Shown here: piece by piece, positions 2,111-63,896 of the stretch
Numbering within the stretch: the stretch's first letter is position 1
How the letters are laid out: each line of letters opens with the position of its first letter
Assembly (NCBI GenBank): GCA_041641295.1
Contig: JBEPYO010000001.1
Location: forward strand, 32,001 to 96,000
DNA from: Nitrososphaerota archaeon
GTDB taxonomy: Archaea; Thermoproteota; Nitrososphaeria_A; Caldarchaeales; Calditenuaceae
Length of the DNA: 64,000 nucleotides
Direction of reading: 5' to 3'
Made by a program: the position numbers and the translations under genes
Notes under the pieces: model-generated
Databases searched by the model: none
Seen by the model: the letters and a program-made list of their open reading frames with translations, nothing else
Told to the model about the DNA's origin: nothing

Positions 2111-2596
2111 TCAGGTTTTAGAAGTAGGTTGTTGCGGCGCTGTCAATTTAAAGGTGAAAACGCCCTTATCTGTGATGAGTGCTATGTTGTAGACTGTTCC
2201 GGGCTCCCAAGCAATCCCGATGTACAGATTTGTTATTCCGCGGGGAGGAATCACGCATTGCGAGCCAACTATGTATGAACATCTCCATCCCCCATAGGGG
2301 GCAAATACAGCCTCGCTCCCCCTAAATAACTGGGAGCTCGATAAAGGTTCAAACCTCAGCTCGACACCGTTCACCTTGATGCTTTTAATCAAGACAGGCT
2401 CTACATGCTCGTTCGCCACTGCCAGAGATAGCTGCGAAAGACCTCTCGCAAAGTTGTATCCTTTGATATTTAGCGTCGTGGAAACAGTTGGACTGTATGG
2501 CTTCATAAAGTCCAGTATACCTATTGATACGACTACCAAGCCTAGAGCCGCGACCAGCATAAGGGCTAGTGATGTCCGTCTTTGCGCGTCACCCAC
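2111..2596 (-). CDS. Membrane-anchored exported beta-sandwich protein, last gene of the NrfCD/cupredoxin operon
   Basis: N-terminal RR plus hydrophobic helix, beta-rich body; start overlaps the upstream gene's 3' end. Confidence 0.6.
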   Translation of the reverse strand: MGDAQRRTSLALMLVAALGLVVVSIGILDFMKPYSPTVSTTLNIKGYNFARGLSQLSLAVANEHVEPVLIKSIKVNGVELRFEPLSSSQLFRGSEAVFAPYGGWRCSYIVGSQCVIPPRGITNLYIGIAWEPGTVYNIALITDKGVFTFKLTAPQQPTSKT

Positions 2597-3536
2597 GCGG
2601 CATCCCCTCCCGCCTCAGCCTGAGAATAGATCGGACAGTCCACAGCACTATCATCCAAGCCGTTACGACGACAGATGTGGCCAAGACGACCAAGACAGTA
2701 TTTGCTCCCGCCTGAACGCCGACCAGCCTAGGGTCAGGCCACAGGTTCTCACCTCGAACGGATGTTTCAGAGAGATCGATTGGAAGCCGCGGTGGTGATG
2801 CAATAGTAGAGGTAATGGTGAGAGTTGCGTTCGCTGGCTTGAACCTTCCGCTTCCTCCAAAGACGGCTAAGATTTGTCTTGGACCAATTTTTGGTGGCTT
2901 GTATTCCAAGGCGGCTATTCCATCTATGTTGGTAGGTATAGCCCCTATGCTCACATATCCTAGAGGGGTATAGTCTAGGAACTCGACTAGGATTCCTTGT
3001 ACGGGTTGACCGTCCTCCGTCATAGCCTTGGCGGTGAGGAGATATATGCCGGGCTGACTCTCGTCGGCTAAAATGGTCAGGCGTAAGGACTCGATGGATG
3101 TCTCGGTCTCCCTGACAACTAATACCCCGTTTTGAAGGTTCTCATGACCCCTACAGCGTAATATGCATCTAATGCTGAATGCTCCGGGCTGGTTAATTGT
3201 CAGCTCTACAACCTTTTTCTCCTCCTCTCCGCTGAGTTCAACCTTTACACCAAATTTTTCAATCTCGATTATGTGGGGATTACCCATTTTCATGCCATGA
3301 TCTCCGTACAAAAAGGTTATCCTAACCGTGTCTCCTTGGTTCACCTCTATCCTGAGTTCTGCTGAGCCGTTGAACCCCATACTTGAGACGATTATTGTAA
3401 ACTCCTTCACCGAGGGTTGAGTGTTCGAGCTTGACACCTCTATTTGGGCCACTGCCGTATGTGGTAGGTGTAGGGCTACGAGATACAGGCTACTCAACAG
3501 CATGATAATTGTGAGAAGAGTTGTAGACCTCCTCAT
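2589..3536 (-). CDS. Cupredoxin (CuA-like) + Ig-like domain protein with C-terminal TM anchor
   Basis: Likely start is ATG 3536 (ATGA overlap with the upstream stop). Signal peptide, IEVNQGDTVRITF, His in NPH, CILRCRGHENL, Ig-like repeat, C-terminal hydrophobic helix. Confidence 0.7.
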   Translation of the reverse strand: MRRSTTLLTIIMLLSSLYLVALHLPHTAVAQIEVSSSNTQPSVKEFTIIVSSMGFNGSAELRIEVNQGDTVRITFLYGDHGMKMGNPHIIEIEKFGVKVELSGEEEKKVVELTINQPGAFSIRCILRCRGHENLQNGVLVVRETETSIESLRLTILADESQPGIYLLTAKAMTEDGQPVQGILVEFLDYTPLGYVSIGAIPTNIDGIAALEYKPPKIGPRQILAVFGGSGRFKPANATLTITSTIASPPRLPIDLSETSVRGENLWPDPRLVGVQAGANTVLVVLATSVVVTAWMIVLWTVRSILRLRREGMPRG

Positions 3537-5476
3537 TTCAAGATCGCCTCCTCGATCTGCATGGCAAATCTCTTTAGTGCCTCCGCTCCGTAGTATCCAA
3601 GGATACTGACTTTGTAGTGGTTCTGCCACACCTCTAGCTTGGGCGGCGACGTTTTCTCATTTAGTAGGGCGACGCTGCCCCTCGGAAGTTCGAATTTAGT
3701 CACGTTCGGCAAAATCGTCTCAGGAGGGCCTAACTTGTCGCCTATCCTCTGGATAAGGACTAGAACGGATACCGGCTCATCGTAGAGGGTTAGACTGCGT
3801 GTTGAGGGGTCATGGAATGCTAGAGATATTAGGGCTGCCTGCCGGTTGTATCTTATGCTAGTGAGTCTGGCTGAGCCCAGCTTTTGAAGGGCCTCCCTCC
3901 TGACTCTGAGTCCTAAGTCATTAAAAGCACTCATATCGGATGCGATCCCCAGGACACCCAGGCTTCTTCTTAACGGCGTAGCGGCGCCTCTGCCGCTTGA
4001 CAAAGCCTTTATGAGGCTCTTAAGCTGCGCGCCCCCAACAAGGCCTGCTACCAGCCCCACCGCTGCTACAGCGACTGTCTTCATAGCACTCCTTCTAACT
4101 TCGATAGGCCTCTCAACCTGGGCTTCTGGATGTGGGACGATTAGTTTTAGAACTGGATAGGCAGAAGGCTCGGCAGCCAAGGCAGCCGGAGCCTGCTCAT
4201 GGCCCACCGTCTCCCATATAGATACGATGGGGAAGAGCTTGGTGAAAACCAAGTAGATGAGCATGAAGAGTGAAAATGCGCCCGCGGTTATCGATAGCTC
4301 GACCCATGTGGGAACATATGTCCCCCAAGGATATGGGAGCTGAGGCACTGCTAGGCTGGGGACAACGATGTTCCACCTCTCTAACCACATGCCAATGTTG
4401 ACTAGGATCGATGCAGCGAGGTAGCCCTTAATGTTGCGTGTGCCAGGGTAGGCGAGAAGGAAGGCCGGGACTATGAGGCCGCCAACTATCTGTACCCAGA
4501 AGTATGGAGCATAGGAGCCCCAAAAGAGTGATGAGAGCCACACACCCTCAAGCTCTTTAGTGCCTAGATACTTGTAGCCGACCACCAAGTGTTCATTGAT
4601 TGTCAGGTAGACGAGTATCAGAACTAGTGCGAGCATCAGTTTTGCCATTGTGTGTAGATGTTTTTCCGTGATAAACGCGTCTAGACCTAGAAGCTTTCTG
4701 ACGAGGGCCATGATGATAATCACTGTTGCTACTCCTGAGAGGACGGCCCCAGCCACGAAGTATGGTCCGAAAATTGTGCTGTTCCAGCCGACCCTCAACG
4801 TCATGGCAAAGTCCCAAGAGACAACTGTATGCACGGTTATCACCATGAATACTATTAGTATGGTGAGTATGCGCATGGCCTGCTCAAGTATTCTCCACTG
4901 TTCAGGCGTCCCCATCCAATTCAGAGACAGCAGGCTGTATAACCTTCTCCTCCATGATGATGCATCTTTCACAGAGTCTCTGAGTACTGCTATATCGGGA
5001 ATCATCGGAACATACAGGTACAGAGTGGACGTTACGAAGTATGTTCCAATCGCTATGAAGTCCCATATTAGAGGCGACTGAATTCTTCCAAACATCAGTA
5101 AGTTCAATATCCGGTCCGGCCTGCCTAAGTCTATTAAAGGCATAAGCATGGCGACAAACAGTGAGGCAAAGGTTACGGCCTCCGCCATTCTTGTTATCGG
5201 GCGCCGCCAATCAGAGCCTGTCAGCCTGAGGATTGCAGAGATGAGGGCCCCTACGTGGCTTATTCCGATGAAGAAGACGAAGTTTATGATATAGAACCCC
5301 CAAACGACCGTTCTCAAGCCCGTAACTCCTAGACCTGTGGCAAGCTGTACGGACCAGGCGTAAACCCCCCAAGCCACCACAGCTAAGAGGGTGGCGAAGG
5401 CTACGTAGAAGAGGGTTCCATGACGCTGTACTGGCCTGATGAGAGCGTCAATCTTCAGATAGGTTGATGCGGTCAT
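3533..5476 (-). CDS. NrfD/PsrC family quinol-interacting membrane subunit (ActC-like) with C-terminal extension
   Basis: WGFYIINFVFFIGISH..LISAIL, RMAEA, DLGRP, SPLIWDF, HTVVSWDFA, PYFVAGA, WLERW motifs and about 10 TM helices. Confidence 0.85.
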   Translation of the reverse strand: MTASTYLKIDALIRPVQRHGTLFYVAFATLLAVVAWGVYAWSVQLATGLGVTGLRTVVWGFYIINFVFFIGISHVGALISAILRLTGSDWRRPITRMAEAVTFASLFVAMLMPLIDLGRPDRILNLLMFGRIQSPLIWDFIAIGTYFVTSTLYLYVPMIPDIAVLRDSVKDASSWRRRLYSLLSLNWMGTPEQWRILEQAMRILTILIVFMVITVHTVVSWDFAMTLRVGWNSTIFGPYFVAGAVLSGVATVIIIMALVRKLLGLDAFITEKHLHTMAKLMLALVLILVYLTINEHLVVGYKYLGTKELEGVWLSSLFWGSYAPYFWVQIVGGLIVPAFLLAYPGTRNIKGYLAASILVNIGMWLERWNIVVPSLAVPQLPYPWGTYVPTWVELSITAGAFSLFMLIYLVFTKLFPIVSIWETVGHEQAPAALAAEPSAYPVLKLIVPHPEAQVERPIEVRRSAMKTVAVAAVGLVAGLVGGAQLKSLIKALSSGRGAATPLRRSLGVLGIASDMSAFNDLGLRVRREALQKLGSARLTSIRYNRQAALISLAFHDPSTRSLTLYDEPVSVLVLIQRIGDKLGPPETILPNVTKFELPRGSVALLNEKTSPPKLEVWQNHYKVSILGYYGAEALKRFAMQIEEAILK

Positions 5477-6273
5477 ACAGAACCGGCACCCCTAGGCGGT
5501 AGATAGATCACGCGCGGCTCTGTGCCTAACTCTTCTTTCAACCTGAAGGGCGCCCTACCTTTAACGATCTCTGACAGCCTGACAGTCTCATCGCCATTTG
5601 ACACGACGTCTTCAGAGGCGTCTCCGAAGAATAAGGCCCTGTGTCCCGCCCTCGTACATGCCTCTACACAGGCGGGCAGTCTCCCCTCTAAAATCCTGTG
5701 CCTACACCATATACACTTTTCAACAACCCCACGCCTGTGGGGAATATTGTAGTCTGGGGAGTAGGGGGTGTTTGCTTCGTCTTCACTTTGTGGGGGGTCG
5801 AACCAGTTAAAGAAGCGGCGCTGGTAGGGGCATGCAGTTATGCATATACGGCATCCGATGCATCTCTCCTGATCTATTAGGACTATATGGTCTTCTGAAT
5901 AGAATGTTGCGCCTACCGGACATACTTTGGCACACGGGGCATTCTGGCAGTTCTGACAGAGCACTGGCAAAAAATACCCATCCCTCTCAAACACCTCTAT
6001 CCAAGGCTGTCGCCCGTTGTAGTTATGCTCTCCCCAAGCAGGAGGAACCCTCATCTCTTCCTGGCAGGCCTCAACACATTTCATGCAGCCGTTACATCGA
6101 TCCGTGTCTATGACGAATACCCACTTTCTCTCCTCTGCCCTTACCCTCGAAACCTCCAGCTCTGTTGGCTGACTAGCCTCGGGAGTCGAGGCCGACGCTA
6201 CAGTACCGGCAAGCGCCGATACTACTCCAGCTAAGAGTTCACGTCTCGAGATCTTCACAGGCTCACCCTCCAA
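5473..6273 (-). CDS. Tat-exported 4Fe-4S dicluster protein (NrfC/PsrB/ActB2-like)
   Basis: SRRELL Tat motif; 16 Cys in four groups (CNGCMKCVEAC, CQNC..PC..VCP, CIGCRICITACP, KCIWC..PACVEAC); ELGTEPRVIYL terminus. Confidence 0.9.
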   Translation of the reverse strand: MEGEPVKISRRELLAGVVSALAGTVASASTPEASQPTELEVSRVRAEERKWVFVIDTDRCNGCMKCVEACQEEMRVPPAWGEHNYNGRQPWIEVFERDGYFLPVLCQNCQNAPCAKVCPVGATFYSEDHIVLIDQERCIGCRICITACPYQRRFFNWFDPPQSEDEANTPYSPDYNIPHRRGVVEKCIWCRHRILEGRLPACVEACTRAGHRALFFGDASEDVVSNGDETVRLSEIVKGRAPFRLKEELGTEPRVIYLPPRGAGSV

Positions 6274-6464
6274 AACATGGATAGGCCTAGATATTCACCA
6301 GCGTGCGTGGCCGTAGGTTCTATGCGTCTTTGCCCCAACGGAAACGCTCCCATCAAAACTGCTGAGGAAATCATAGTGAGAAGAATAGGAGTGATAATCA
6401 AACAATAATAAAAATTAGTGTGATGAAAAAAAGGTGTGGGAGACCTTGTCGAGTACACATCAAC

Positions 6465-7040
6465 CTACCCCTCTAATACGACCAAGTATCCAACCATGTA
6501 TGCGTGATCTGCATCACAATCGTCTTTTTCATGATCAAATGGTATACCACATCTAAACTGGAACACTCCAGCTTTGTCGGCAACAAAGGACACCATCACG
6601 GTACGCTTAGCTTCGTCGGGCTGCTCCTCCTTCCCAGGTATCCTGCCTGTATCGACGCCAAAGTCTGCCAGAACAAAGGAGTGCGCGTGGCTCCGCGGGT
6701 TCTTCACCGTCAGCTCCACCTTGTCACCCTTCCGCACAACTAGAACAGGCGGCTCCCATCTATGGAACTCGCCCGTAAGCTCCTCTTCCTCATTCACCTC
6801 TTGTACTATCTTACCCTCACCCAGTACGATTGTAAACTTTTGAGTCTTCGGGCCTACCTTTGCCGTTAATTCGTCAAGAGTTACAGCCTGCTCGTTCAGC
6901 TGTCCAGACAGCCTATTGAGCTGGCCTGATATTGCATCGAGCTGAGCCGTTGTAGACGACGTTTGTCCGACGACTAGTGCTACCGCTGCGACGGCGATGA
7001 CCAAGCTGACAAGACTGAGAACCAAGTACGCTCTGCTCAT
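6465..7040 (-). CDS. Membrane-anchored cupredoxin-domain protein with coiled-coil stalk
   Basis: Likely start is ATG 7040 (MSRAYLV) after GAGGGA. TM helix, heptad stalk, VVRKGDKVELTVKN, HSF, FRC..C...H..M copper-ligand loop. Confidence 0.75.
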   Translation of the reverse strand: MSRAYLVLSLVSLVIAVAAVALVVGQTSSTTAQLDAISGQLNRLSGQLNEQAVTLDELTAKVGPKTQKFTIVLGEGKIVQEVNEEEELTGEFHRWEPPVLVVRKGDKVELTVKNPRSHAHSFVLADFGVDTGRIPGKEEQPDEAKRTVMVSFVADKAGVFQFRCGIPFDHEKDDCDADHAYMVGYLVVLEG

Positions 7041-7075
7041 GACCACATTCCCTCGCACATCTTGAACCGCTAACA

Positions 7076-7226
7076 CGGAAAAATGCGTTTCTAGGGAATA
7101 CACTATGCAGGACCAAACGCAAACCCTATTCCCTACCAGAAATGCAACGGAAATTTTCTATTGTCGTAGGGAAAGAAAAATTTCCGCTGGTTTTTCTCTC
7201 AAACCATCCTCTATCCTCGGAAAAAC
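7076..7226. promoter_or_regulatory. Divergent promoter region with two inverted repeats
   Basis: TAGGGAATA (7092-7100) / TATTCCCTA (7127-7135); CGGAAATTTTCT (7148-7159) / AGAAAAATTTCCG (7174-7186). Confidence 0.45.
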
Positions 7227-7306: not shown

Positions 7307-8113
7307 CTGAGCTCGAGGAAGCCTCAAGAAGATAAGGGGCAAACTGAGGATGATTTTTACCGCGTCCTCTGCCACCCGCTTAGGCGAAAGATCATTGTTC
7401 TGCTCCACGAAAGAATAGAGCTGTCATATTCTGAGATGTTAAGAGAGCTTGCGGTGGAGGAGGGTCTCTTCAACTTTCATCTAAGATCTATGCGTAAACT
7501 CATAGACATAACAGAGGATGGAAAATATGTCCTATCAAACATGGGAAGGCTTGCATACGACGTCATCACCAAGGTGCAGTCCAGCTTAGCCACCGTGGAC
7601 ACGCTCTTTCCGAAGCCAGCCCTCACCCACAACATATTGGCGAGAAGAGTCGCAGCCTTCCTTATCGACGGTCTAATCTTCTTCGTATTCAGCGGAGTAT
7701 GGTTAGACCCATTCCTCTGGAACGCTCTTATGCAATCGATAATGCACATCACCGAGCTGAGAGTTCTCCACCCCTGGCTATTCCACCCAGAGCATATCCC
7801 TGAGATCGGGGGATTGATCTTTCGAGTAGTTGCAGCCTACTCACATATCTTCTTCGCCATATTCATCACGCTCACACTACTGGATGCATACAAGGGTCAA
7901 ACCCCGGGACGCTATCTTCTCGGGATAAGAGTGGTAACAATAGCTAATCGAAGGCTGGATCTAATAGAAGCAGGGATAAGAAACATTGGGAAGGTCTTTC
8001 TACTCCCGCTGGACCTAATCATAGGCCTTCTCTTCTTTTACAAGCGCGGCTACATAAGATTCTTCGACTACTACACAAAAAGCAAAGTGGAGATGGTGAA
8101 AGGAGGTCTCTAG
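7307..8113 (+). CDS. ArsR-like winged HTH fused to RDD-family membrane domain
   Basis: The frame stays open upstream of the track start 7436 and encodes FYRVLCHPLRRKIIVLL..LSYSEM (HTH). In-frame TGA at 7298 leaves CTG 7307 as the likely start. RRVAAFLID, GQTPGRYLLGIRVV and RN are RDD motifs. Confidence 0.7.
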   Translation: MSSRKPQEDKGQTEDDFYRVLCHPLRRKIIVLLHERIELSYSEMLRELAVEEGLFNFHLRSMRKLIDITEDGKYVLSNMGRLAYDVITKVQSSLATVDTLFPKPALTHNILARRVAAFLIDGLIFFVFSGVWLDPFLWNALMQSIMHITELRVLHPWLFHPEHIPEIGGLIFRVVAAYSHIFFAIFITLTLLDAYKGQTPGRYLLGIRVVTIANRRLDLIEAGIRNIGKVFLLPLDLIIGLLFFYKRGYIRFFDYYTKSKVEMVKGGL

Positions 8114-9775: not shown

Positions 9776-10405
9776 TTAGTTTGTTTGTTTTTGTTTGAGT
9801 TTCTTGATTCTGGTGCGATACTTTTCTCTATAGAGTTGGAGGCATGAACGGCAACATAAGAAGGCGTATGCGCCTCCAGCCCTAAATGTAAGCGGCTCCC
9901 CTCTGATGGGTCCGCCACAGTAGTCACACTTCAGCTCGACCACTACCCCTTCTTCCAGTGGGAAACCTGGCTCATCCCTCAAACTACGGATAATCATGAT
10001 TACATTGTTTATCTCAAGTCCTTCGATGCGTGCTAGCTCTTCCTCGAACCGCTGGAATCCAACAAGGTCCTTGCAGGCAACCTTGATCAGTAGGTTACTT
10101 TCCCCACTTATGAGAAAGACACCACGTACCTGCTGCATAGCTAATATGCGTTCAATTATTTCTCTTGCCGTATTGCCTTTCACCTTGGCGAATATTAGGC
10201 CGGCGGCCCCCCTGCCGAACGACTCAAGGTCTAGAACTGGAATGAAGCCTTTGAGCAATCCAGCCTTCTTGAGGCGCTCGACCCTATATGCAATTGTAGG
10301 CGTTGTTGTTCTCAGGGTGCGGGCTATTTGTCTATATGATGCCCGCGCATCCCGCATGAGAGCCTGCAGTATTGCTATGTCTAACTTGTCAAGAGTTAGG
10401 GGCAT
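9776..10405 (-). CDS. Lrp/AsnC family regulator with C-terminal TRASH domain (CopR/CopT-like)
   Basis: Probable leaderless ATG 10405 about 25 nt after TATATAT. LDKLDIAILQAL..DARASYRQIA HTH; CDYCG..CCRSC TRASH motif; lies beside copA. Confidence 0.85.
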   Translation of the reverse strand: MPLTLDKLDIAILQALMRDARASYRQIARTLRTTTPTIAYRVERLKKAGLLKGFIPVLDLESFGRGAAGLIFAKVKGNTAREIIERILAMQQVRGVFLISGESNLLIKVACKDLVGFQRFEEELARIEGLEINNVIMIIRSLRDEPGFPLEEGVVVELKCDYCGGPIRGEPLTFRAGGAYAFLCCRSCLQLYREKYRTRIKKLKQKQTN

Positions 10406-10467
10406 GCACAACATCATCACTATGGGGATATATATGGTTGCGGTACTTTTCATCCATAGAGCCCTGC

Positions 10468-11415
10468 TTATTCTGAAGCCATCTCCTCTACAAAATTCCA
10501 TTCAAAGACCCTGTCAACACCGTACAACCCTTTCAGGATAAGTCTGATAGAGCGGGGTTGGTAATCTAATGGTGGGAATGTTAGTATCCCGTCTCTATGA
10601 TGACCGCCCGGAGGAGATCCATTCCATGACTTTGGATAATAAATTCTACCATTATCGTCCTGAAGTATGGCGACAGAGAGCATGTCCCAATATAGGTCAC
10701 CTACGTGAGTATCCATTTTAATATTGAAGGAGAGTTCTTTGCCTACCGAGTATGGGAGTGGGGTCACCTCTACTGTCAGCCCATTTGCCTCACTGACTTG
10801 CTTGGGGAGCATTATCACGTTGCTGCTCTCCTGCTCTGATGACATGGCGACAGTACCTAGAATTCCCCAGCCCAGCATAAACGAGCCTATTATAACAGAA
10901 GTTACTAGTGCCGTATTTTTAGCCTTAGCCATATTTATACGCATCAATCCAGCTAGGATACCCTTGTCTTCATAGAGTCTGTGCCTCTGTATCAGGTTTA
11001 GCATGAAGGTGATGCCAACAACATTTGATAGCAGCCCTACGACGATGAGGTATGGTTGGTAGGCTGTAAGGAATATGGCCGCGGCCGTAAACCCTACCAG
11101 GGGCAAAACATCAGTTATGTGGTGGATGCAGCAAGCTAACATGGCGGTTGTTGAAACCCCTCCCGTTATGGATACGCAGGCAGTGCCTTCGTGTAGGGTT
11201 GCGGCTCTGTGTCTCGCGTAGGAGAAGAGTGAGACTTGGACACCAAATCCCGCCAACAATGGAATCATCAGAGGCGAGAGGAGAATAAACTGTTCAACGG
11301 CGGCCGCTAGAGACTGTGCAATAACCATTATGAAGAAATAGACGGTGAACAAAGCCCCGGCAGACAGCAAGCCGATGGCTACGTGCCTGTTCAAATAATT
11401 TGGCTTAGCTACCAT
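10468..11415 (-). CDS. Polytopic membrane protein with CCxHH motif and extracellular His-rich domain, putative copper handling
   Basis: About 6 TM helices; MLACCIHHITD; soluble C-terminal domain with MDTHVGDL and GGHHRDG. Confidence 0.6.
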   Translation of the reverse strand: MVAKPNYLNRHVAIGLLSAGALFTVYFFIMVIAQSLAAAVEQFILLSPLMIPLLAGFGVQVSLFSYARHRAATLHEGTACVSITGGVSTTAMLACCIHHITDVLPLVGFTAAAIFLTAYQPYLIVVGLLSNVVGITFMLNLIQRHRLYEDKGILAGLMRINMAKAKNTALVTSVIIGSFMLGWGILGTVAMSSEQESSNVIMLPKQVSEANGLTVEVTPLPYSVGKELSFNIKMDTHVGDLYWDMLSVAILQDDNGRIYYPKSWNGSPPGGHHRDGILTFPPLDYQPRSIRLILKGLYGVDRVFEWNFVEEMASE

Positions 11416-11568
11416 GGGGCATCCCCTCCAAAGAGATACCTTGTACTGCGCAACAATAGTCTGAAGACAGGCTGGGCAGCATCATGCATTACCTCCTTTC
11501 ATACATTAAATCCTTAAACTAAAAGATATGCCTTCCTTGTTACAAATAAAAAGTGTGAGACTCGCATA

Positions 11569-11584
11569 CTTTACATGTGTAAAG
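11569..11584. promoter_or_regulatory. Palindromic operator CTTTAC-N4-GTAAAG, copy 1
   Basis: CTTTACATGTGTAAAG, followed 7 nt later by a TATA-like TATTTAT upstream of the cupredoxin gene. Confidence 0.6.
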
Positions 11585-11621
11585 ACGGATGTATTTATTG
11601 GAGCAGGTCTTATACTATTTG

Positions 11622-12095
11622 ATGAAAGGTAAGAAAACAAAACGAAGGCAGCGAGGCCTCCTTGATGCATTGAAGGCAGCTCTTCCACTTATTCTGTTTA
11701 TTATCTTCTTGGGTTGGCTGCTCTGGCCTCAGACACCACAGTCATACTCACAGTCGCAGATAACGTCGCAGTCCCCGGCACAGTCTGGAGCTGGCAGGGT
11801 AGTAGAAGTCCAAGCAGATATGGCTGGCTTTAGACCAAATATAATCCGAGCAAGGGTGGGAGAGAAACTGACTGTAAGACTTGTCAGTCTAGACAATGAG
11901 TACCACGTTGATGGAGGGGGCAAGCACCAATTTGCCATCGACGAGATGGGTGTGAATATAGTCGCGCCTCCCTTAGGCGCAAGTGAAGCTTCCTTCACAC
12001 CTACTCAGGCAGGAACCTACGTATTTTACTGCGATATCTGTTGCGGCGGCCGTAATAACCCGTCAATGAGGGGCCAGTTAATAGTCGAGAGTTAG
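11622..12095 (+). CDS. Membrane-anchored cupredoxin-domain protein (CDICCGG type)
   Basis: Likely ATG 11622; TM anchor; GFRPNIIRARVGE, HQF, YCDICCGG..M. Confidence 0.75.
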   Translation: MKGKKTKRRQRGLLDALKAALPLILFIIFLGWLLWPQTPQSYSQSQITSQSPAQSGAGRVVEVQADMAGFRPNIIRARVGEKLTVRLVSLDNEYHVDGGGKHQFAIDEMGVNIVAPPLGASEASFTPTQAGTYVFYCDICCGGRNNPSMRGQLIVES

Positions 12096-12214
12096 AAACG
12101 ACTTCACGATTGATCGGTCTACTGCGGGTCACGTATTAAAAATCCGCCTAATAGGTTCCTCTCTTAAATGTGTATTCGTATAGTCTGATACATGTTAGAT
12201 TTTTAGTCCCCATT

Positions 12215-12230
12215 CTTTACATTCGTAAAG
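12215..12230. promoter_or_regulatory. Palindromic operator CTTTAC-N4-GTAAAG, copy 2
   Basis: CTTTACATTCGTAAAG, followed 7 nt later by TTTTTA upstream of the YHS-copA genes. Confidence 0.6.
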
Positions 12231-12271
12231 AGCTAGCTTTTTACTCGACTGTGCTCAATATTGTGGTGAAG

Positions 12272-12490
12272 ATGTTCGGGTTCGGGAAAGCTAAGGATCC
12301 TGTGTGTGGCATGAGCGTAGAAAAGAAGAAAGCGATCAAGAGAATTGTCGGAGGTGTTGAGTATTATTTTTGTAGCGAGCATTGTGCAAATGAATTTGAA
12401 AACAAGCATGGGGGGTCAGTTGAACTTGAAGAGGACGAGCTGCACAGCCACGGTGGACATAGAGGGCACCATCATACGGGCTGTTGTTGA
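12272..12490 (+). CDS. YHS/TRASH-domain metallochaperone with His/Cys-rich tail
   Basis: KDPVCGM..YYFCSEHC; tail HSHGGHRGHHHTGCC; directly upstream of copA. Confidence 0.85.
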   Translation: MFGFGKAKDPVCGMSVEKKKAIKRIVGGVEYYFCSEHCANEFENKHGGSVELEEDELHSHGGHRGHHHTGCC

Positions 12491-12545
12491 TAACTGGTGC
12501 GGCTTACAAGACTTTTTGGACGTATCTCAGTAGAGGTGTAATTTT

Positions 12546-15077
12546 GTGAAGGAGAAGAAAATAGACCTGCAGATTGGTGGAATGCACTGCGCCTCATGCG
12601 CTCAGACGATAGAGAAGGCTCTAAGAGGCTTAGAAGGAGTGATAGATGTGAGTGTTAACTTCAATGCTGCTAAAGCTTACGTCGTGTATGACCCGGGTAA
12701 AGTGCACCTCTCTGACTTGAAGAGGATTATAAGTGATGTGGGGTATAGAGTTCTCACAAATAAGGTTACCTTAAAGATTGAGGGGATGACTTGCGCCTCC
12801 TGCGTCCAGAAGGTTGAGAATGCGCTCAGAAATGTGGATGGAGTCTTTGATGCTACGGTAAATTTGGCCTTGGGTAAGGCAACAGTCGAATACGCATCTG
12901 ACGTTAAAATTTCGGAGATGGTTAAAGCGGTCAGGGAGGTAGGTTATGAGGCGTCGGAGGCTGTTGAGGCAGAGCTGACGATTGACAGGGGAAAGCTTGA
13001 GAGGAGGAAGGAGATAAGACGGCAGACAATCAACCTTGCCCTTGCAACTCCACTAGCGTTGATAGTTATGCTGGGAGAGTTCCGCATGTATTGGCTGAAC
13101 TATTTTTATGTTCCCGAGTTTATGGAGAATAAATTCTTCCTCCTTGCTATCACTTCTATAGTAGTGTTTGGTCCTGCTAGGCAGTTCTTTGTTAACTCCT
13201 TTAGAGGGCTGATGCACGGCGCAACGGACATGAACCTTCTCTACGCCACAGGTATAGGCGCTGCATACTCAGTCAGCGCTTTCAGTACATTCTTCCCCTT
13301 CGGGGGTGGGCTCCCAAGCGTCTGGTTTGAGGCAGCAGCCCTTCTAACAGCCTTCATAGTCCTAGGACGCTTCCTAGAGGCTATAACGCGTGGAAGAACC
13401 TCAGAGGCCATCAGGAGGCTCATGGAGATTAAGCCTAAGACTGCGAGGGTGATCCGGGATGGTGAAGAGGTGGAGATATCAGCGGATGATGTTCAGATCG
13501 GGGATGTAGTCTTAGTGAGGCCAGGTGAAAGGATTCCCGTAGACGGTATAGTGATTGAAGGATACTCCTCCGTAGATGAGTCCATGATCACGGGGGAAAG
13601 TATGCCAGTGGACAAGAAGGTAGGTGATGAGGTTATAGGTGGAACGGTGAACAAGGCAGGCTTTCTCAAGTTTAGGGCAACTAAAGTTGGTAAGGATACC
13701 GCTTTAGCACAAATTATAAAGCTTGTTGAGCAGGCTCAGACCTCTAAGCTCCCAATTCAGAGGCTGGCAGACTGGGTTGCAGGAAACTTCATCTTCGCCA
13801 TACACGTTTTAGCTCTGATAACGTTTCTCTTCTGGTTCTTCATTGGCTATGAAGCATTCTTCGTACCTAAGGGCGAGGAGATCTTTACTGGGTTCTGGTA
13901 CCGCGTCGTTCCCCAAGCCTCTCCAGCCACACTCGCCCTGCTTATCTCAATAGCTGTACTAGTCATCTCATGCCCATGCGCCGTGGGCCTCGCCACTCCC
14001 TCAGCTGTTATGATGGGAACAGGCAAGGCGGCGGAGAACGGGATACTGATAAGAAGTGGTGAAGCCCTAGAAATGGCCCATAAGCTTGACGTCATCATCT
14101 TCGATAAGACAGGTACTCTAACTAAAGGGGAGCCGTCAGTAACCGATGTAGTGCTAAAGGCAGCACCAGCTATACGCGCCAACCCACATCCTCGTGACGA
14201 GAGATGGCTGCTCTTGATGGCGGCTATTGCTGAGAAGAGGTCGGAGCACCCGCTAGCGAAGGCAATTGTGAAAAGGGCTAGGGAACTTGGTCTCGACATA
14301 CCAGACCCAGAGTCATTTGAGGCTATACCGGGGCAGGGGGTCCAAGCAGCATACAATGGAAAGACAATCCTTCTAGGCAACAGAAAACTGATGACCAGCA
14401 AGGGAATAAGGATAGACGATCTGGAGGAGAAGATAGCAGCCCTGGAGGACGAGGGGAAGACAGTTATGATCCTCTCTTATGATGGCGAGGCCTGCGGAGT
14501 TATAGCGGTCGCAGACACTCTTAAGGAACACTCTGCAGAAGCCGTTAATATTATTCAGGAGATGGGCATCGAAGTTGCCATGCTCACCGGTGATAACAGG
14601 AGGACGGCAAACGCGATAGCTAAGCGTCTTGGCATTAAGCGTGTATTGGCAGAGGTCCTGCCGCAGGACAAGGCGGAGGAAGTAAGGAAGCTTCAGGCCG
14701 AGGGTAAGAAGGTGGGATTCGTAGGCGATGGAATCAACGATGCTCCGGCGCTAACCCAGGCGGATGTCGGCATAGCGCTAGGAAGTGGTACAGACATCGC
14801 GATGGAGGCGGGGAAGATAGTCCTTATCAAGGACGACCTCCGAGACGTGGTGAATGCCATCGACATCAGCAAACGCACTATGAGAAAGATTAAGGAGAAC
14901 TTGTTCTGGGCATTCTTCTATAACGCCACTGCCGTGCCATTAGGCATGGGCATCCTCTACCCGTCCATGAGCTTCGTAGTGAGCCCCGAACTAGCAGCCC
15001 TGCTAATGGCCCTCAGTTCTTTCACCGTAACCATGAACACCCTCACGATGAAGAGGATGAAGCCGAGAGTCAGGTGA
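12546..15077 (+). CDS. copA: Cu(I)-translocating P1B-type ATPase
   Basis: Two GMxCASC HMA domains, TGES, CPC, DKTGT, SEHP, GDGIND, YN and MxxSS Cu(I) signatures. Confidence 0.95.
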
Positions 15078-21803: not shown

Positions 21804-22343
21804 TTGACGGCCCGGAGACGACTACTGCAGGGGATATTGGCGACAGCTGCCATAGTCGTGGTATCCCCATTCACCCAACTCATCAATTTCTTCTACAGGA
21901 AGGAGGAAGGAAAAGCGCAGCGACAAAAGATAGCTAATTTGAAGGACCTGTCCCCAGGCTCCTACATCTACTTCTCATACCCCCAGACTGGCGACCCGAA
22001 GGTTGATAATGACCCGTTCAGACAATTCGTCCTCATAATGACGAGTGACGGCCAGTTGAGAGTGTACAGCAGGGTCTGTGTCCACCTCTGGTGCCTCCCC
22101 TCCTACATCCCCTCTAGAGGCCAGCTCATCTGCCCCTGCCACGGCTCAATCTACCGGAACTCGGATGGAGTGGCTATAGGAGGTCCGGCCGCCTATCAGC
22201 CCTATCCAACAAATGCCCTGCCGATGGGTAGGATAGAGGTTGACAATAATGGGGATATCTGGATGGTCGGCGTTGAGGGTAGGATAGGGTATGGTAGAGA
22301 GTGGCGTAATGTTAAGCCTGAGGACCTAGTTAAGCGGGTGTAG
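21804..22343 (+). CDS. Rieske 2Fe-2S subunit of a bc-type complex
   Basis: Tat-like RRRLL anchor; CVHLWC and CPCHGS motifs. Confidence 0.92.
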   Translation: MTARRRLLQGILATAAIVVVSPFTQLINFFYRKEEGKAQRQKIANLKDLSPGSYIYFSYPQTGDPKVDNDPFRQFVLIMTSDGQLRVYSRVCVHLWCLPSYIPSRGQLICPCHGSIYRNSDGVAIGGPAAYQPYPTNALPMGRIEVDNNGDIWMVGVEGRIGYGREWRNVKPEDLVKRV

Positions 22344-22348
22344 CTATT

Positions 22349-23725
22349 ATGTCCTCTAGTGCTAAGACTATGCGTGAGCTCGTCAATAATCTTTGGAAGT
22401 GGACAGTCGATAGGCTTGAAAGGACAACCATCGTGGTGTACAAGTTTACTGTGCCTAAGCAGTATGTTAGCCCCTTTGGTTATCTCGGCACCCTCACAGC
22501 GATTGTCTTCGCGATTCTAGGAGTATCAGGGGCCTTCCTCATGTTCTACTACAGGCCAGACGTTGAGCTCGCATTCCTGAGTGTACAGGAGATTCAGGAG
22601 AAAGTCCCGTTTGGCTTCATAATGAGAAACATACACTACCATGCCTCGAATCTAATGGTTCTCCTCGCAGTTCTACACCTCTACTACCAATACTTCTCAG
22701 GCCGCTATAAGATAAAAAACGAGGTTCTTTGGGTTACGGGCGTAATCCTAGGGGTTTTGACAGTCTTGGAGGCCTATACTGGTTACAACCTCATAATGAA
22801 TCAGAGGGCTATGCTGGCGGTAAATATAGGGATGGGGTTGACATTCTCTGCGCCTGTTCTCGGCCCCTCGGTAGCTCCCATCTTCCTAGGTGGTGGCCTG
22901 TTCGATCTAATCATAAGGTTCTATGCCCTCCACGTCTTCATACTCCCTCTGCTCATGTTGCTGCTGGCGGCTGTCCATTTTCCGAGGGCTCTAATCATCG
23001 ACTTCCCGGTCATATCAGCGGTAGTCGGTGTAATATTCATCTCGGCAGGCCTCTTCCCAGCTGAGCTCGGCATCAAATTCGACCTGACGCGTGGGATAGT
23101 AGAGGTTCCCGAATGGTATCTTACGGCAATATACGCCTTCCTTAGGGCTGGTACGGAGCGGTTCACAGCCGGGGCCCTACTTCCTTTGCTCTTCGTAATA
23201 CTCTTCCTCATAGTCCCATTCGTAGACAAGTCTAGGAGGTTGTCCTGGAAGGATAGGCCATTCTTCACTGGCCTCGGTGTTGCAAGCATCGCGTTAATTG
23301 CCATCACCACTGTCTGGGGCTTCTATGTAGACTTCTCAAAGGAGACGGCCTTCGACCAGCTGTATATTGAGCCGACGCTATTTTACGGCACGATAGGCGG
23401 TGTGACAGTGGCCAGCTTCTACGCCACATATTTTTACATGTCTAGGCAGAAGAGAGGTGCTAGGCCTACACCGACAAGGCCGATCATGCTCAGCCCCAAG
23501 GCCTCCACCAGCCTGATGATAACACTCCTCATATTCATCGCGGCAGCGGTGGCGGCGACATTTTACACCTACTCGATAAACCTGCCCAACCACTCCATGT
23601 TCTATCTAGGTATCGCCTTCTTCCTATTCGGGCTGCTACTGCATATATATAGGCACTCACTTTCGGTTGAGGAGCGGCTCAAGGCCCAAAAACAGCAGCA
23701 AAAAGCCGAAGCAGCCAGCCAGTAG
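22349..23725 (+). CDS. Cytochrome b (b + subunit IV fused) of a bc-type complex
   Basis: Heme His in RNIHYH..LHL and ALHV..VH; PEWY motif; extra C-terminal TM helices. Confidence 0.92.
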   Translation: MSSSAKTMRELVNNLWKWTVDRLERTTIVVYKFTVPKQYVSPFGYLGTLTAIVFAILGVSGAFLMFYYRPDVELAFLSVQEIQEKVPFGFIMRNIHYHASNLMVLLAVLHLYYQYFSGRYKIKNEVLWVTGVILGVLTVLEAYTGYNLIMNQRAMLAVNIGMGLTFSAPVLGPSVAPIFLGGGLFDLIIRFYALHVFILPLLMLLLAAVHFPRALIIDFPVISAVVGVIFISAGLFPAELGIKFDLTRGIVEVPEWYLTAIYAFLRAGTERFTAGALLPLLFVILFLIVPFVDKSRRLSWKDRPFFTGLGVASIALIAITTVWGFYVDFSKETAFDQLYIEPTLFYGTIGGVTVASFYATYFYMSRQKRGARPTPTRPIMLSPKASTSLMITLLIFIAAAVAATFYTYSINLPNHSMFYLGIAFFLFGLLLHIYRHSLSVEERLKAQKQQQKAEAASQ

Positions 23726-63804: not shown

Positions 63805-63896
63805 GGGGCCGTGGTCTAGCATGGCTATGACGCCAGCCTGGGGAACTACACGGTCCTGAGCGCTGGAGGACGTGGGTTCAAATCCCACCGGCCCCA
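63805..63896 (+). tRNA. tRNA-Pro(GGG) with 17-nt intron at position 37/38
   Basis: Acceptor GGGGCCG/CGGCCCC, anticodon stem CCAGC/GCTGG, loop CT-GGG-G, intron 63844-63860, T arm GTGGG-TTCAAAT-CCCAC; TATA-like TTAATA upstream. Confidence 0.9.

Follow-up and report, generated by a model that had tools for sequence, protein, structure and literature searches.

A candidate haem- and molybdenum-free relative of alternative complex III with cupredoxin partners in a Caldarchaeales archaeon

Many aerobic archaea lack c-type cytochromes, and the path by which quinol feeds their CuA-bearing oxidases is known in outline only, as a Rieske/cytochrome b complex and copper carriers. The locus described here raises the question whether there is a further path, in which a quinol-oxidizing module related to alternative complex III (ACIII) is connected to copper proteins. 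It lies in a stretch of 64,000 nucleotides (the window) from a Nitrososphaerota archaeon of the order Caldarchaeales, positions 32001-96000 of contig JBEPYO010000001.1 (C1), in a genome of 1.56 Mb that comprises five contigs and is 93.8% complete. Five co-oriented open reading frames (ORFs) on the minus strand span positions 2111-7103 in the ORF listing of the window. In order, they encode a membrane-tethered cupredoxin (cup1), an iron-sulfur (Fe-S) protein with a signal for twin-arginine translocation (Tat), an NrfD-family membrane subunit of the ActC type, a second cupredoxin with an immunoglobulin-like (Ig) domain (cup2), and a small anchored protein (bs). A preliminary description, made from the letters alone, had seen in them a haem-free, copper-wired quinol oxidoreductase. 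At a probability of roughly 0.55, we slightly favour the view that the five products form one membrane complex passing electrons from quinol over four clusters and copper to CuA-type oxidases, as a haem- and molybdenum-free relative of ACIII. If so, it is likely a route from the quinone pool to oxygen reductases that has not been described.

The ActC-type subunit and its iron-sulfur partner

The membrane subunit (3533-5476, minus strand, 647 amino acids) belongs to the NrfD/PsrC superfamily, as it scores 118.1 bits against PF03916 (NrfD) with a gathering cut-off of 25.8 in Pfam. In a phmmer search of PDB sequences, the only strong matches were the ActC chains 6f0k_C, 6lod_C, 6btm_C and 8k9e_C, with E-values from 7.8e-71 to 1.6e-63; the best of them, 6f0k_C (E 7.8e-71), was matched over residues 22-425 with 242 bits. 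ActF was matched weakly and PsrC not at all in this search. The resemblance to ActC, previously read from the stretches WGFYIINFVFFIGISH, RMAEA, SPLIWDF and PYFVAGA, is real, since all of these are present and align to ActC of 6F0K. The ten-helix core occupies residues 1 to about 425, and the protein has no cysteine anywhere. Beyond the core lie an eleventh helix and a cysteine-free domain of ~150 amino acids (DNA 3533 to about 4050). Because the termini of ActC lie on the N side according to a review (PMC8076601) and one helix is added, this C-terminal domain is predicted to lie outside. An Atlas structure search related it to DUF4367/MucB_RseB-type domains at TM-scores of 0.62-0.66, which we treat as a lead only. 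In a relative of the same genus, G001, the ActC-like gene is split into a core ORF of 416 amino acids and an ORF of 238 amino acids that bears the extra helix and the outer domain (G001:C23, loci L016/L027; 2793-4687 of L016); the outer domain can thus also be a subunit of its own.

In ActC, the quinol site is made up of His139, Asp169 and Asp253, and Arg395 serves as gate, as given in the same review (PMC8076601). All eight archaeal sequences that we aligned have the counterparts of D169, D253 and R395. The position of His139 is occupied by Asp in seven of the eight, the window protein included.

The neighbouring gene (5473-6273, minus strand, 266 amino acids) overlaps the membrane subunit gene by 4 nt and encodes an Fe-S protein of the ActB2/NrfC/DsrO type with a twin-arginine motif (SRRELL) and 16 cysteines in four motifs. 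A GTG at 6258 (MKISRRELL) behind a GGAGG may be its start instead of the listed TTG at 6273. Pfam recognizes 4Fe-4S dicluster domains (Fer4_11, 60.5 bits). The full mature length aligns to residues 796-1022 of ActB (6f0k_B), and the stretches RRFFNW and RGVVEKC, from which a likeness to ActB2 had been proposed, are present and align to ActB of 6F0K within an alignment that covers the whole Fe-S protein. This likeness holds for the alignment and fails for the [3Fe-4S] signature: the third motif reads CIGCRIC, whereas its ActB equivalent is CIGTRYC. Because all four motifs hold four cysteines, four [4Fe-4S] clusters are predicted. An identity as DsrOP was ruled out, as both proteins stay below the cut-offs of the NCBIfam models (DsrO, 188.7 bits against 200 for the Fe-S protein; DsrP, the best model for the membrane subunit, 104.7 against 350), in a comparison in which DsrM, DsrK and DsrJ were not searched.

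The two subunits appear to have changed in concert. Among 77 ORFs that have the third motif, its second position is Cys ([4Fe-4S]) in 24 and Thr (the [3Fe-4S] signature of ActB) in 53. When this position was compared with that of ActC-His139 in the neighbouring membrane subunit (rows L014, L017-L021, L026-L105, L111, L139 and window 3533-6273, with eight rows in which no Fe-S ORF was found), His went with Thr in 47 of 47 pairs and Asp with Cys in 33 of 33. This pairing spans bacterial ACIII, ACIII-like modules, archaeal Psr-like modules and the archaeal cupredoxin-type modules; the archaeal clade itself holds one His/Thr pair (L029) and seven Asp/Cys pairs. The strict covariation supports a contact of the Fe-S protein and the ActC-type subunit at the quinol site, as in ACIII, and by its predicted motifs the window module is of the four-[4Fe-4S] kind. 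The agreement of His or Asp with the three- or four-iron signature of the partner (80 of 80 pairs) also offers a testable clue to how the first electron transfer is tuned.

Two cupredoxins in a conserved gene order

The gene for cup1 (6465-7040, minus strand) is part of an ORF that is open to a GTG at 7103 (6465-7103, 212 amino acids from the GTG); its likely start is the ATG at 7040, which is preceded by GAGGGAA. At the sequence level cup1 is recognized faintly by domain models, with 24 bits for Cupredoxin_1 in Pfam, below the cut-off of 27 bits, and weak NCBIfam matches to NirK, nitrosocyanin, NosZ and CoxB. A profile of cup1 searched against PDB sequences found the cupredoxin domain of NirK (1.4e-14), nitrosocyanin (2.9e-11) and the CuA domain of NosZ (6.8e-09). 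An anchor helix and a long helical linker precede the beta-sandwich. In the AlphaFold2 model, built from only seven sequences at a mean predicted local distance difference test (pLDDT) of 70.6, the helix covers residues 2-61 and the sandwich residues 66-189; residues 62-191 match known folds with Z-scores of 11.6 (6tfd_A), 10.0 (nitrosocyanin, 34% identity) and 8.5 (CupA). The tether, helical here, is Gly-Pro-rich and collagen-like in HR01, L027 and L139.

The gene for cup2 (2589-3536 within an ORF of 2589-3629, minus strand) likely starts at the ATG at 3536, which creates an ATGA overlap with the stop codon of the NrfD gene. Its product combines a signal peptide, a cupredoxin domain, an Ig-like domain and a C-terminal membrane anchor. 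Pfam returned weak Ig matches only, and the ten proteins found in a word-based search were all unnamed or labelled 'hypothetical'. The AlphaFold2 model, based on an alignment of 50 sequences (pLDDT 84.7), shows a signal helix, a sandwich at 43-142, the Ig domain at 151-243 and a C-terminal helix at 276-310. Foldseek matched it to the CuA domain of the ba3 oxidase (2cua_A, TM-score 0.66, root mean square deviation 2.8 over 106 columns, 25% identity). Alignment of residues 28-144 with VIA-align gave Z-scores of 12.4 for NirK, 11.7 for Cupredoxin_1 (4hcf), 11.6 for the CuA domain of NosZ, 10.8 for nitrosocyanin, 10.7 for CupA (4f2e, 27% identity) and 10.2 for ba3 subunit II (29% identity). The cup2 profile found the cupredoxin domain of NirK (2.7e-12), auracyanin A (9.8e-07), NosZ (9.7e-05) and ba3 subunit II (1.1e-04) among PDB sequences. 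At E-values below 1e-30 the cup2 family has 139 representatives, many of which match through the Ig domain. Both proteins are thus cupredoxins by their modelled folds, with which the profile similarities agree.

The ligand loops of both proteins are nearer to the two-cysteine loops of CuA than to classical blue copper, and the binding of copper is putative. In cup1 of the window the loop reads H...C-x10-C-x3-H-x2-M, with ten residues between the cysteines, and H120, C164 and C175 are invariant in seven sequences. The orthologue in L139 has C-x3-C-x3-H-x2-M, which is exactly the CuA spacing; in the aligned Bathyarchaeia-type copies (L028, L111), C-x3-C-x3-M is found, Met replacing His. In cup2, the loop is H88...C124-x3-C128-x2-H131-x3-Q135; H88, C124 and C128 do not vary among 50 sequences, within a common loop C-x3-C-x-G-[H/M]-E-N-L-Q. 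At residue 131, four Caldarchaeales copies have His, and two Bathyarchaeia copies and the consensus of the 50 sequences have Met. When cup2 was aligned by profile to the type 1 domain of NirK, C124 fell on the ligand Cys, the column of the ligand His was not conserved and that of the Met was Leu. The proposal that the cupredoxins are copper electron centres is hence upheld for the fold and has to be revised for the site, which is not of the classical blue-copper type and shows two-cysteine, CuA-like loops instead.

The last gene, bs (2111-2596, minus strand, 161 amino acids), encodes a small, N-terminally anchored protein with two cysteines. It has no Pfam or NCBIfam match, and in the Atlas it resembles hypothetical archaeal clusters only, apart from a weak lead to DoxA at 0.90. 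Its orthologues stand last in the cluster in all eight archaeal loci. With the GTG of bs as its start, the genes for cup2 and bs share 8 nt. As described earlier from the letters, the last four of the five co-oriented genes abut or overlap. Some 190 nt, which contain a T-run and an AT-rich stretch, separate cup1 from the Fe-S gene. The assignment of the first four products (anchored cupredoxin, Tat Fe-S protein, NrfD protein, and cupredoxin with Ig domain and membrane anchor) was likewise confirmed, for the cupredoxins by profile searches and fold, and a motif scan found CxxCH in none of the five, in keeping with what had been noted. The twin-arginine motif of the Fe-S protein, the signal or anchor helices of cup1, cup2 and bs, and a TatC encoded in the genome suggest that these parts share the outer side of the membrane.

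To what extent this neighbourhood is conserved was assessed in relatives and in larger collections. Of 41 relatives searched, eight had an ActC-like match. G027, G038 and G001 carry orthologues with 59-71% identity and all five genes in order. An ActC-like paralogue with 37-41% identity is present in seven genomes; where its flanks were examined (G001, G003, G007, G027, G038), it is preceded by a Tat protein of 811-816 amino acids and its own Fe-S gene, and in G001, G027 and G038 this Tat protein is a molybdopterin-family match. A scan of a genome collection yielded 600 candidate stretches and 595 relatives, from which 80 loci were kept, 76 of them bacterial and four archaeal (HR01, a Caldarchaeales metagenome-assembled genome and two Bathyarchaeia). 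A metagenome scan with the ActC-like protein was dominated by bacterial ActC and contributed at least two further archaeal forms (639 amino acids) among the best 80 loci. The order cup1, Fe-S protein, ActC-like subunit, cup2 and bs is present in eight of eight distinct archaeal loci, which come from two classes (with Caldarchaeales and Bathyarchaeia) and from metagenomes. Conservation of the cupredoxin-FeS-NrfD-cupredoxin neighbourhood, the survey that had been recommended, is thereby established for these loci, and chance adjacency of the five genes was ruled out because the order recurs in all of them. In one Bathyarchaeia locus (L028 6352-7103), cup1 is spread over two overlapping ORFs, possibly by a frameshift or an assembly error.

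None of the 76 kept bacterial ActC loci contained a match to cup1, cup2 or bs, and no second NrfD match was found in the archaeal cupredoxin-type loci. The closest bacterial loci, with 45-52% identity, come from Calditrichota, KSB1, Marinimicrobia and others; in the gene maps drawn for ~30 of the 76, they hold an ORF of 165-190 amino acids with five CxxCH (ActA-like), a Tat protein of ~800 amino acids (ActB1-like), a short Fe-S protein, ActC and additional CxxCH proteins. At 38-43% identity, the bacterial loci have the make-up of canonical ACIII, including ActF and an ActB of ~1000 amino acids. Outside the eight archaeal and 76 bacterial loci surveyed, short forms of 430-470 amino acids with 53-56% identity are labelled Thermoplasmata, Chloroflexi or Dehalococcoidia; as a hint of linkage, the cup2-like proteins P0285 and P0286 lie on contigs equal in length (12487 and 10404) to those of the ActC-like P0071 and P0074. 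In a tree of 114 rows, the eight archaeal proteins formed one clade (SH-aLRT 100). This clade meets those of NC10, Chloroflexi, the Calditrichota type and canonical ActC+ActF at a fork that the tree does not resolve. This was a quick LG+G4 tree with long-branch warnings, rooted on the archaeal Psr-like paralogues and built without reference DsrP, QrcD, HybB and PsrC sequences; of the phylogeny once suggested for the NrfD subunit, it provides the separateness of the archaeal clade and leaves its placement at the fork. Searched with the cup2 profile, a sample of the phylum contained the cluster in five of 401 genomes, all in the taxonomic order of the window, and in two of eight genomes of its genus.

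Candidate electron acceptors, neighbouring genes and competing explanations

Candidate acceptors are encoded in the same genome. We found three COX1 genes (haem-copper oxidases), and two of the three subunits II carry the canonical CuA motif C-x3-C-x3-H-x2-M. A fusion of a multicopper oxidase with a plastocyanin-like domain and a membrane anchor, followed by SCO1 (C1:136607-138801), and a plastocyanin-like protein with a polytopic anchor that adjoins an ORF of 784 amino acids (C1:662689-663513) are, by their sequence, further candidates for copper carriers to the oxidases. Neither a cytochrome c domain (PF13442) nor a cytochrome c assembly protein (PF01578) was detected in the window genome, and CxxCH occurs in three of its 1654 ORFs, once in each. 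The five other carriers of the cluster all encode COX1 and cytochrome b, and a gene for cytochrome c assembly was detected in none of them, so the notion that these archaea do without cytochrome c machinery is corroborated in six genomes. A Rieske protein and a cytochrome b of 458 amino acids with fused N- and C-terminal domains are encoded 15 kb from the cluster (window 21804-23725). Because of this pair and of the cytochrome b in all five other carriers, the module adds to complex III and is not its replacement. The earlier suggestion of copper in place of c-type cytochromes accordingly has to be divided: the cupredoxin synteny in eight of eight loci, together with the haem and ActB1-like genes that bacterial relatives have at the equivalent positions, speaks for it, while a substitution for complex III itself does not hold.

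On the reading that the five genes encode one quinol-oxidizing complex, the ActC-type subunit would bind quinol beside the proximal cluster of the Tat-exported Fe-S protein. Electrons would then pass the four [4Fe-4S] clusters to the anchored cup2, a fixed subunit at the place of ActA, to which we assign it because of its C-terminal anchor and the translational coupling of its gene to the ActC-like gene. From cup2 they could move on to cup1, whose long tether would make it a mobile arm at the place of ActE or auracyanin and which would hand them to the CuA-bearing haem-copper oxidases. Proton translocation is conceivable, given the conserved channel residues of ActC. We infer the assembly, the presence of copper in the sites (possibly binuclear), the roles of a fixed and a mobile cupredoxin, the direction of flow and the proton coupling. 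A predicted complex of the Fe-S protein (45-266) and cup2 (28-250), run without controls, scored 0.29 and 0.27, the mark being 0.32, and speaks neither for nor against their contact. The stronger version of this reading would be that of an archaeal ACIII counterpart free of haem and molybdenum, in which two stand-alone CuA-like cupredoxins with two-cysteine, possibly binuclear sites replace ActA and ActE and a proton-coupled quinol:cupredoxin oxidoreductase wires the quinone pool to CuA oxidases in archaea without cytochrome c; these would be the first CuA-type centres outside oxidases and N2O reductase to serve as subunits of a quinol oxidoreductase. We hold this version tentatively and rate its chances at somewhat below even.

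Several observations weigh against a quinol-oxidizing complex. The distribution of the cluster is patchy (5/401), which suits an accessory role, and the Rieske/cytochrome b pair of the window organism and the cytochrome b in all five other carriers mean that a second quinol oxidase is not needed. Judged by their cysteines, the four motifs of the Fe-S protein resemble those of low-potential PsrB/NrfC, whereas ActB has a high-potential [3Fe-4S] signature. The ligand loops of cup1 and cup2 match neither canonical CuA nor type 1 copper, as far as can be predicted. The Cys/Met-rich loops also recall Cu(I) carriers, for which sets of Cys and Met ligands are typical; one such carrier, CupA, is among the fold matches of cup2 (Z 10.7). 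Moreover, given the gap of 190 nt with a T-run after it, cup1 may be transcribed separately here.

Some of these points are shared by an explanation in which electrons flow in reverse, which we consider unlikely. The cupredoxins would take electrons from Fe(II), Cu(I) or a copper enzyme, for instance the multicopper oxidase-plastocyanin fusion, and the ActC module would reduce the quinone pool with the help of the proton gradient. The four [4Fe-4S] motifs and the Asp in place of His at the quinol site would fit this direction, as they are found in Psr-type modules and in the archaeal Psr-like paralogue, and the gate and channel residues of ActC are kept. A patchy distribution suits an accessory lithotrophic trait, and three hot-spring metagenomes may be the source of the DNA. 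There is also a proposed precedent in iron oxidizers, since a review relays the proposal that ACIII may replace bc1 in the uphill route of Mariprofundus (PMC13741234). Against this stands that none of the eight loci contains a candidate for a donor-oxidizing enzyme and that every carrier has oxidases able to accept electrons directly. The potentials of CuA or blue copper are usually far above those of quinones, so the reverse flow would be strongly uphill.

A role in copper handling is a little less probable still. Here, cup1 and cup2 would bind Cu(I) by way of Cys, Met and His, and the Fe-S/ActC module would reduce Cu(II) or oxidize Cu(I) outside the membrane, be it for detoxification or for loading of the CuA oxidases. 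The match of cup2 to the Cu(I) chaperone CupA argues for such a role, as does the Met at the variable ligand position in the consensus of 50 sequences. In addition, a copper-efflux (cop) locus begins 2.7 kb from the cluster (window 9776-15077). It encodes a CopR-like Lrp/AsnC+TRASH regulator, a membrane protein of 315 amino acids that belongs to no family, a cupredoxin whose loop reads C-x2-C-C, and a CopA ATPase; in G027, cop-type genes flank the cluster. However, only two of the eight archaeal loci have cop-type genes close to the cluster, the matches of fold and profile to NirK, NosZ, ba3 and auracyanin equal or exceed that to CupA, and the spacing in cup1 of L139 is precisely that of CuA electron-transfer centres. 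No copper chaperone system is known to comprise a four-cluster Fe-S protein and an ActC-type quinol subunit, though no search was aimed at one.

A dedicated membrane-bound regulator next to the cluster would also fit copper handling. It is encoded divergently (7319-8113, plus strand) and combines a winged helix-turn-helix domain with an RDD membrane domain (RDD family, 48 bits); homologues with 47-55% identity adjoin the cluster in the Caldarchaeales-type loci L014, L026, L027 and L139. According to tblastn, its winged-helix part (7319-7436) lies in frame upstream of the first ATG, GTG or TTG at 7436. No canonical start codon is found between the preceding stop codon and 7436, and a non-canonical start or a sequence error may be the cause. 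Far from the cluster, Rfam identified a tRNA of 92 nt (window 63805-63896, 56.9 bits) that ARAGORN in bacterial mode did not report, which is consistent with an intron-bearing archaeal tRNA.

That the Fe-S/ActC pair is an orphan NrfC/NrfD anchor of an unlinked molybdenum enzyme, hydrogenase or cytochrome, with the cupredoxins as mere neighbours, is largely refuted and highly improbable. In its favour, relatives are publicly named 'molybdoenzyme membrane anchor', 'HybB-like' or 'polysulfide reductase NrfD', the window genome has one NiFe hydrogenase locus, and molybdenum enzymes are encoded in four of the five other carriers. Against it, no molybdopterin enzyme (PF00384) was found in the window genome or in the carrier G041. 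Where molybdenum enzymes adjoin ActC-like genes (G001, G027, G038), a separate Fe-S/NrfD paralogue accompanies them; the fourth carrier with such an enzyme, G042, has a single molybdenum gene. Neither a cytochrome c domain nor an assembly gene was detected in the window genome, in which CxxCH is confined to three of 1654 ORFs, and the cupredoxin synteny holds in eight of eight loci. An unlinked molybdenum subunit, for which a search had been advised, was thus ruled out as partner in this genome, which is 93.8% complete and has a single NrfD gene (one PF03916 match). The hydrogenase was rejected as partner as well, since a large subunit of 431 amino acids, neighbours of the diaphorase type and the lack of a twin-arginine start let the locus be read as cytoplasmic and not as facing outward.

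Should a quinol-oxidizing, copper-linked complex prove correct, ActB2/ActC would be a portable quinol socket that has received copper in evolution in addition to haem, molybdenum or Ni-Fe heads, and ACIII-type bioenergetics would reach into the Archaea. For the study of CuA-type centres, the loci would also offer naturally occurring two-cysteine cupredoxins that stand alone and differ by His or Met from lineage to lineage.

Comparison with known systems

In the literature covered, which left subscription journals and supplements mostly outside, we found no description of an archaeal ActB2/ActC module with cupredoxin subunits. The accessible part of the review PMC8076601 lists ActC/F in bacterial phyla only and does not contain the words 'copper' and 'cupredoxin'. 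ACIII is structurally known from Rhodothermus marinus (6F0K), Flavobacterium johnsoniae (6BTM) and Roseiflexus castenholzii (6LOD) as well as from 8K9E. The module shares with it the ActC-type ten-helix quinol subunit and an outer-face ActB2-type Fe-S protein with the RRFNW and RGVxEKC stretches. ACIII passes its electrons to acceptors on the outer face that include the blue copper protein auracyanin, as stated in the accessible parts of PMC7439408 and PMC10873879. In contrast to ACIII, the module has no pentahaem ActA, no monohaem ActE, no ActB1 domain and no ActF, and since these components are lacking we do not file it as ACIII. Its Fe-S protein of 266 amino acids corresponds to residues 796-1022 only, whereas ActB has B1 fused to B2. 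It differs further in the Cys for the Thr of the [3Fe-4S] signature and the Asp for His139, in an ActC core that is extended by a further helix and an outer domain, in having two cupredoxins and bs as fixed gene partners and in being archaeal.

A further system for comparison is the ACIII variant of Caldithrix abyssi, given as actABCEED without ActF/G in the accessible part of PMC5317091. The identity to this variant and to the loci of Calditrichota, KSB1, Marinimicrobia and NC10 is the highest among the bacterial ActC-like proteins fetched (45-52%). Caldithrix-type loci have a short, separate four-Cys Fe-S protein, an Asp at the position of His139 and no ActF, like the archaeal module. Unlike the module, they keep the ActA-like ORF with five CxxCH, the ActB1-like Tat protein of ~800 amino acids and further c-type cytochromes, and the position of D253 is Ile or Val in them but Asp in the archaeal clade.

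The Tat four-cluster ferredoxin on a cofactor-free quinone subunit of the NrfD family is a feature that the module has in common with PsrBC, NrfCD, DsrOP, QrcCD and HybAB. Those systems work with a molybdenum enzyme, a hydrogenase or a multihaem cytochrome, of which none is available as partner in the window genome. With the CuA domains of ba3 oxidase (2CUA/1EHK) and NosZ, cup1 and cup2 share the cupredoxin fold, two cysteines in the loop and an upstream His; cup1 keeps the C-x3-H-x2-M end, and cup2 is 25-29% identical to ba3 subunit II when the structures are aligned. They differ from the CuA domains of an oxidase or NosZ in being stand-alone anchored proteins with other ligand spacings. CupA of Streptococcus pneumoniae (4F2E), a Cu(I) chaperone, resembles them as a membrane-anchored cupredoxin fold with Cys and Met ligands. 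Its partner is the CopA pump and not an Fe-S/quinone module, and cop genes are seldom near here (2/8 loci). Overall, the archaeal module would thus represent a new variant that is assembled from known modules.

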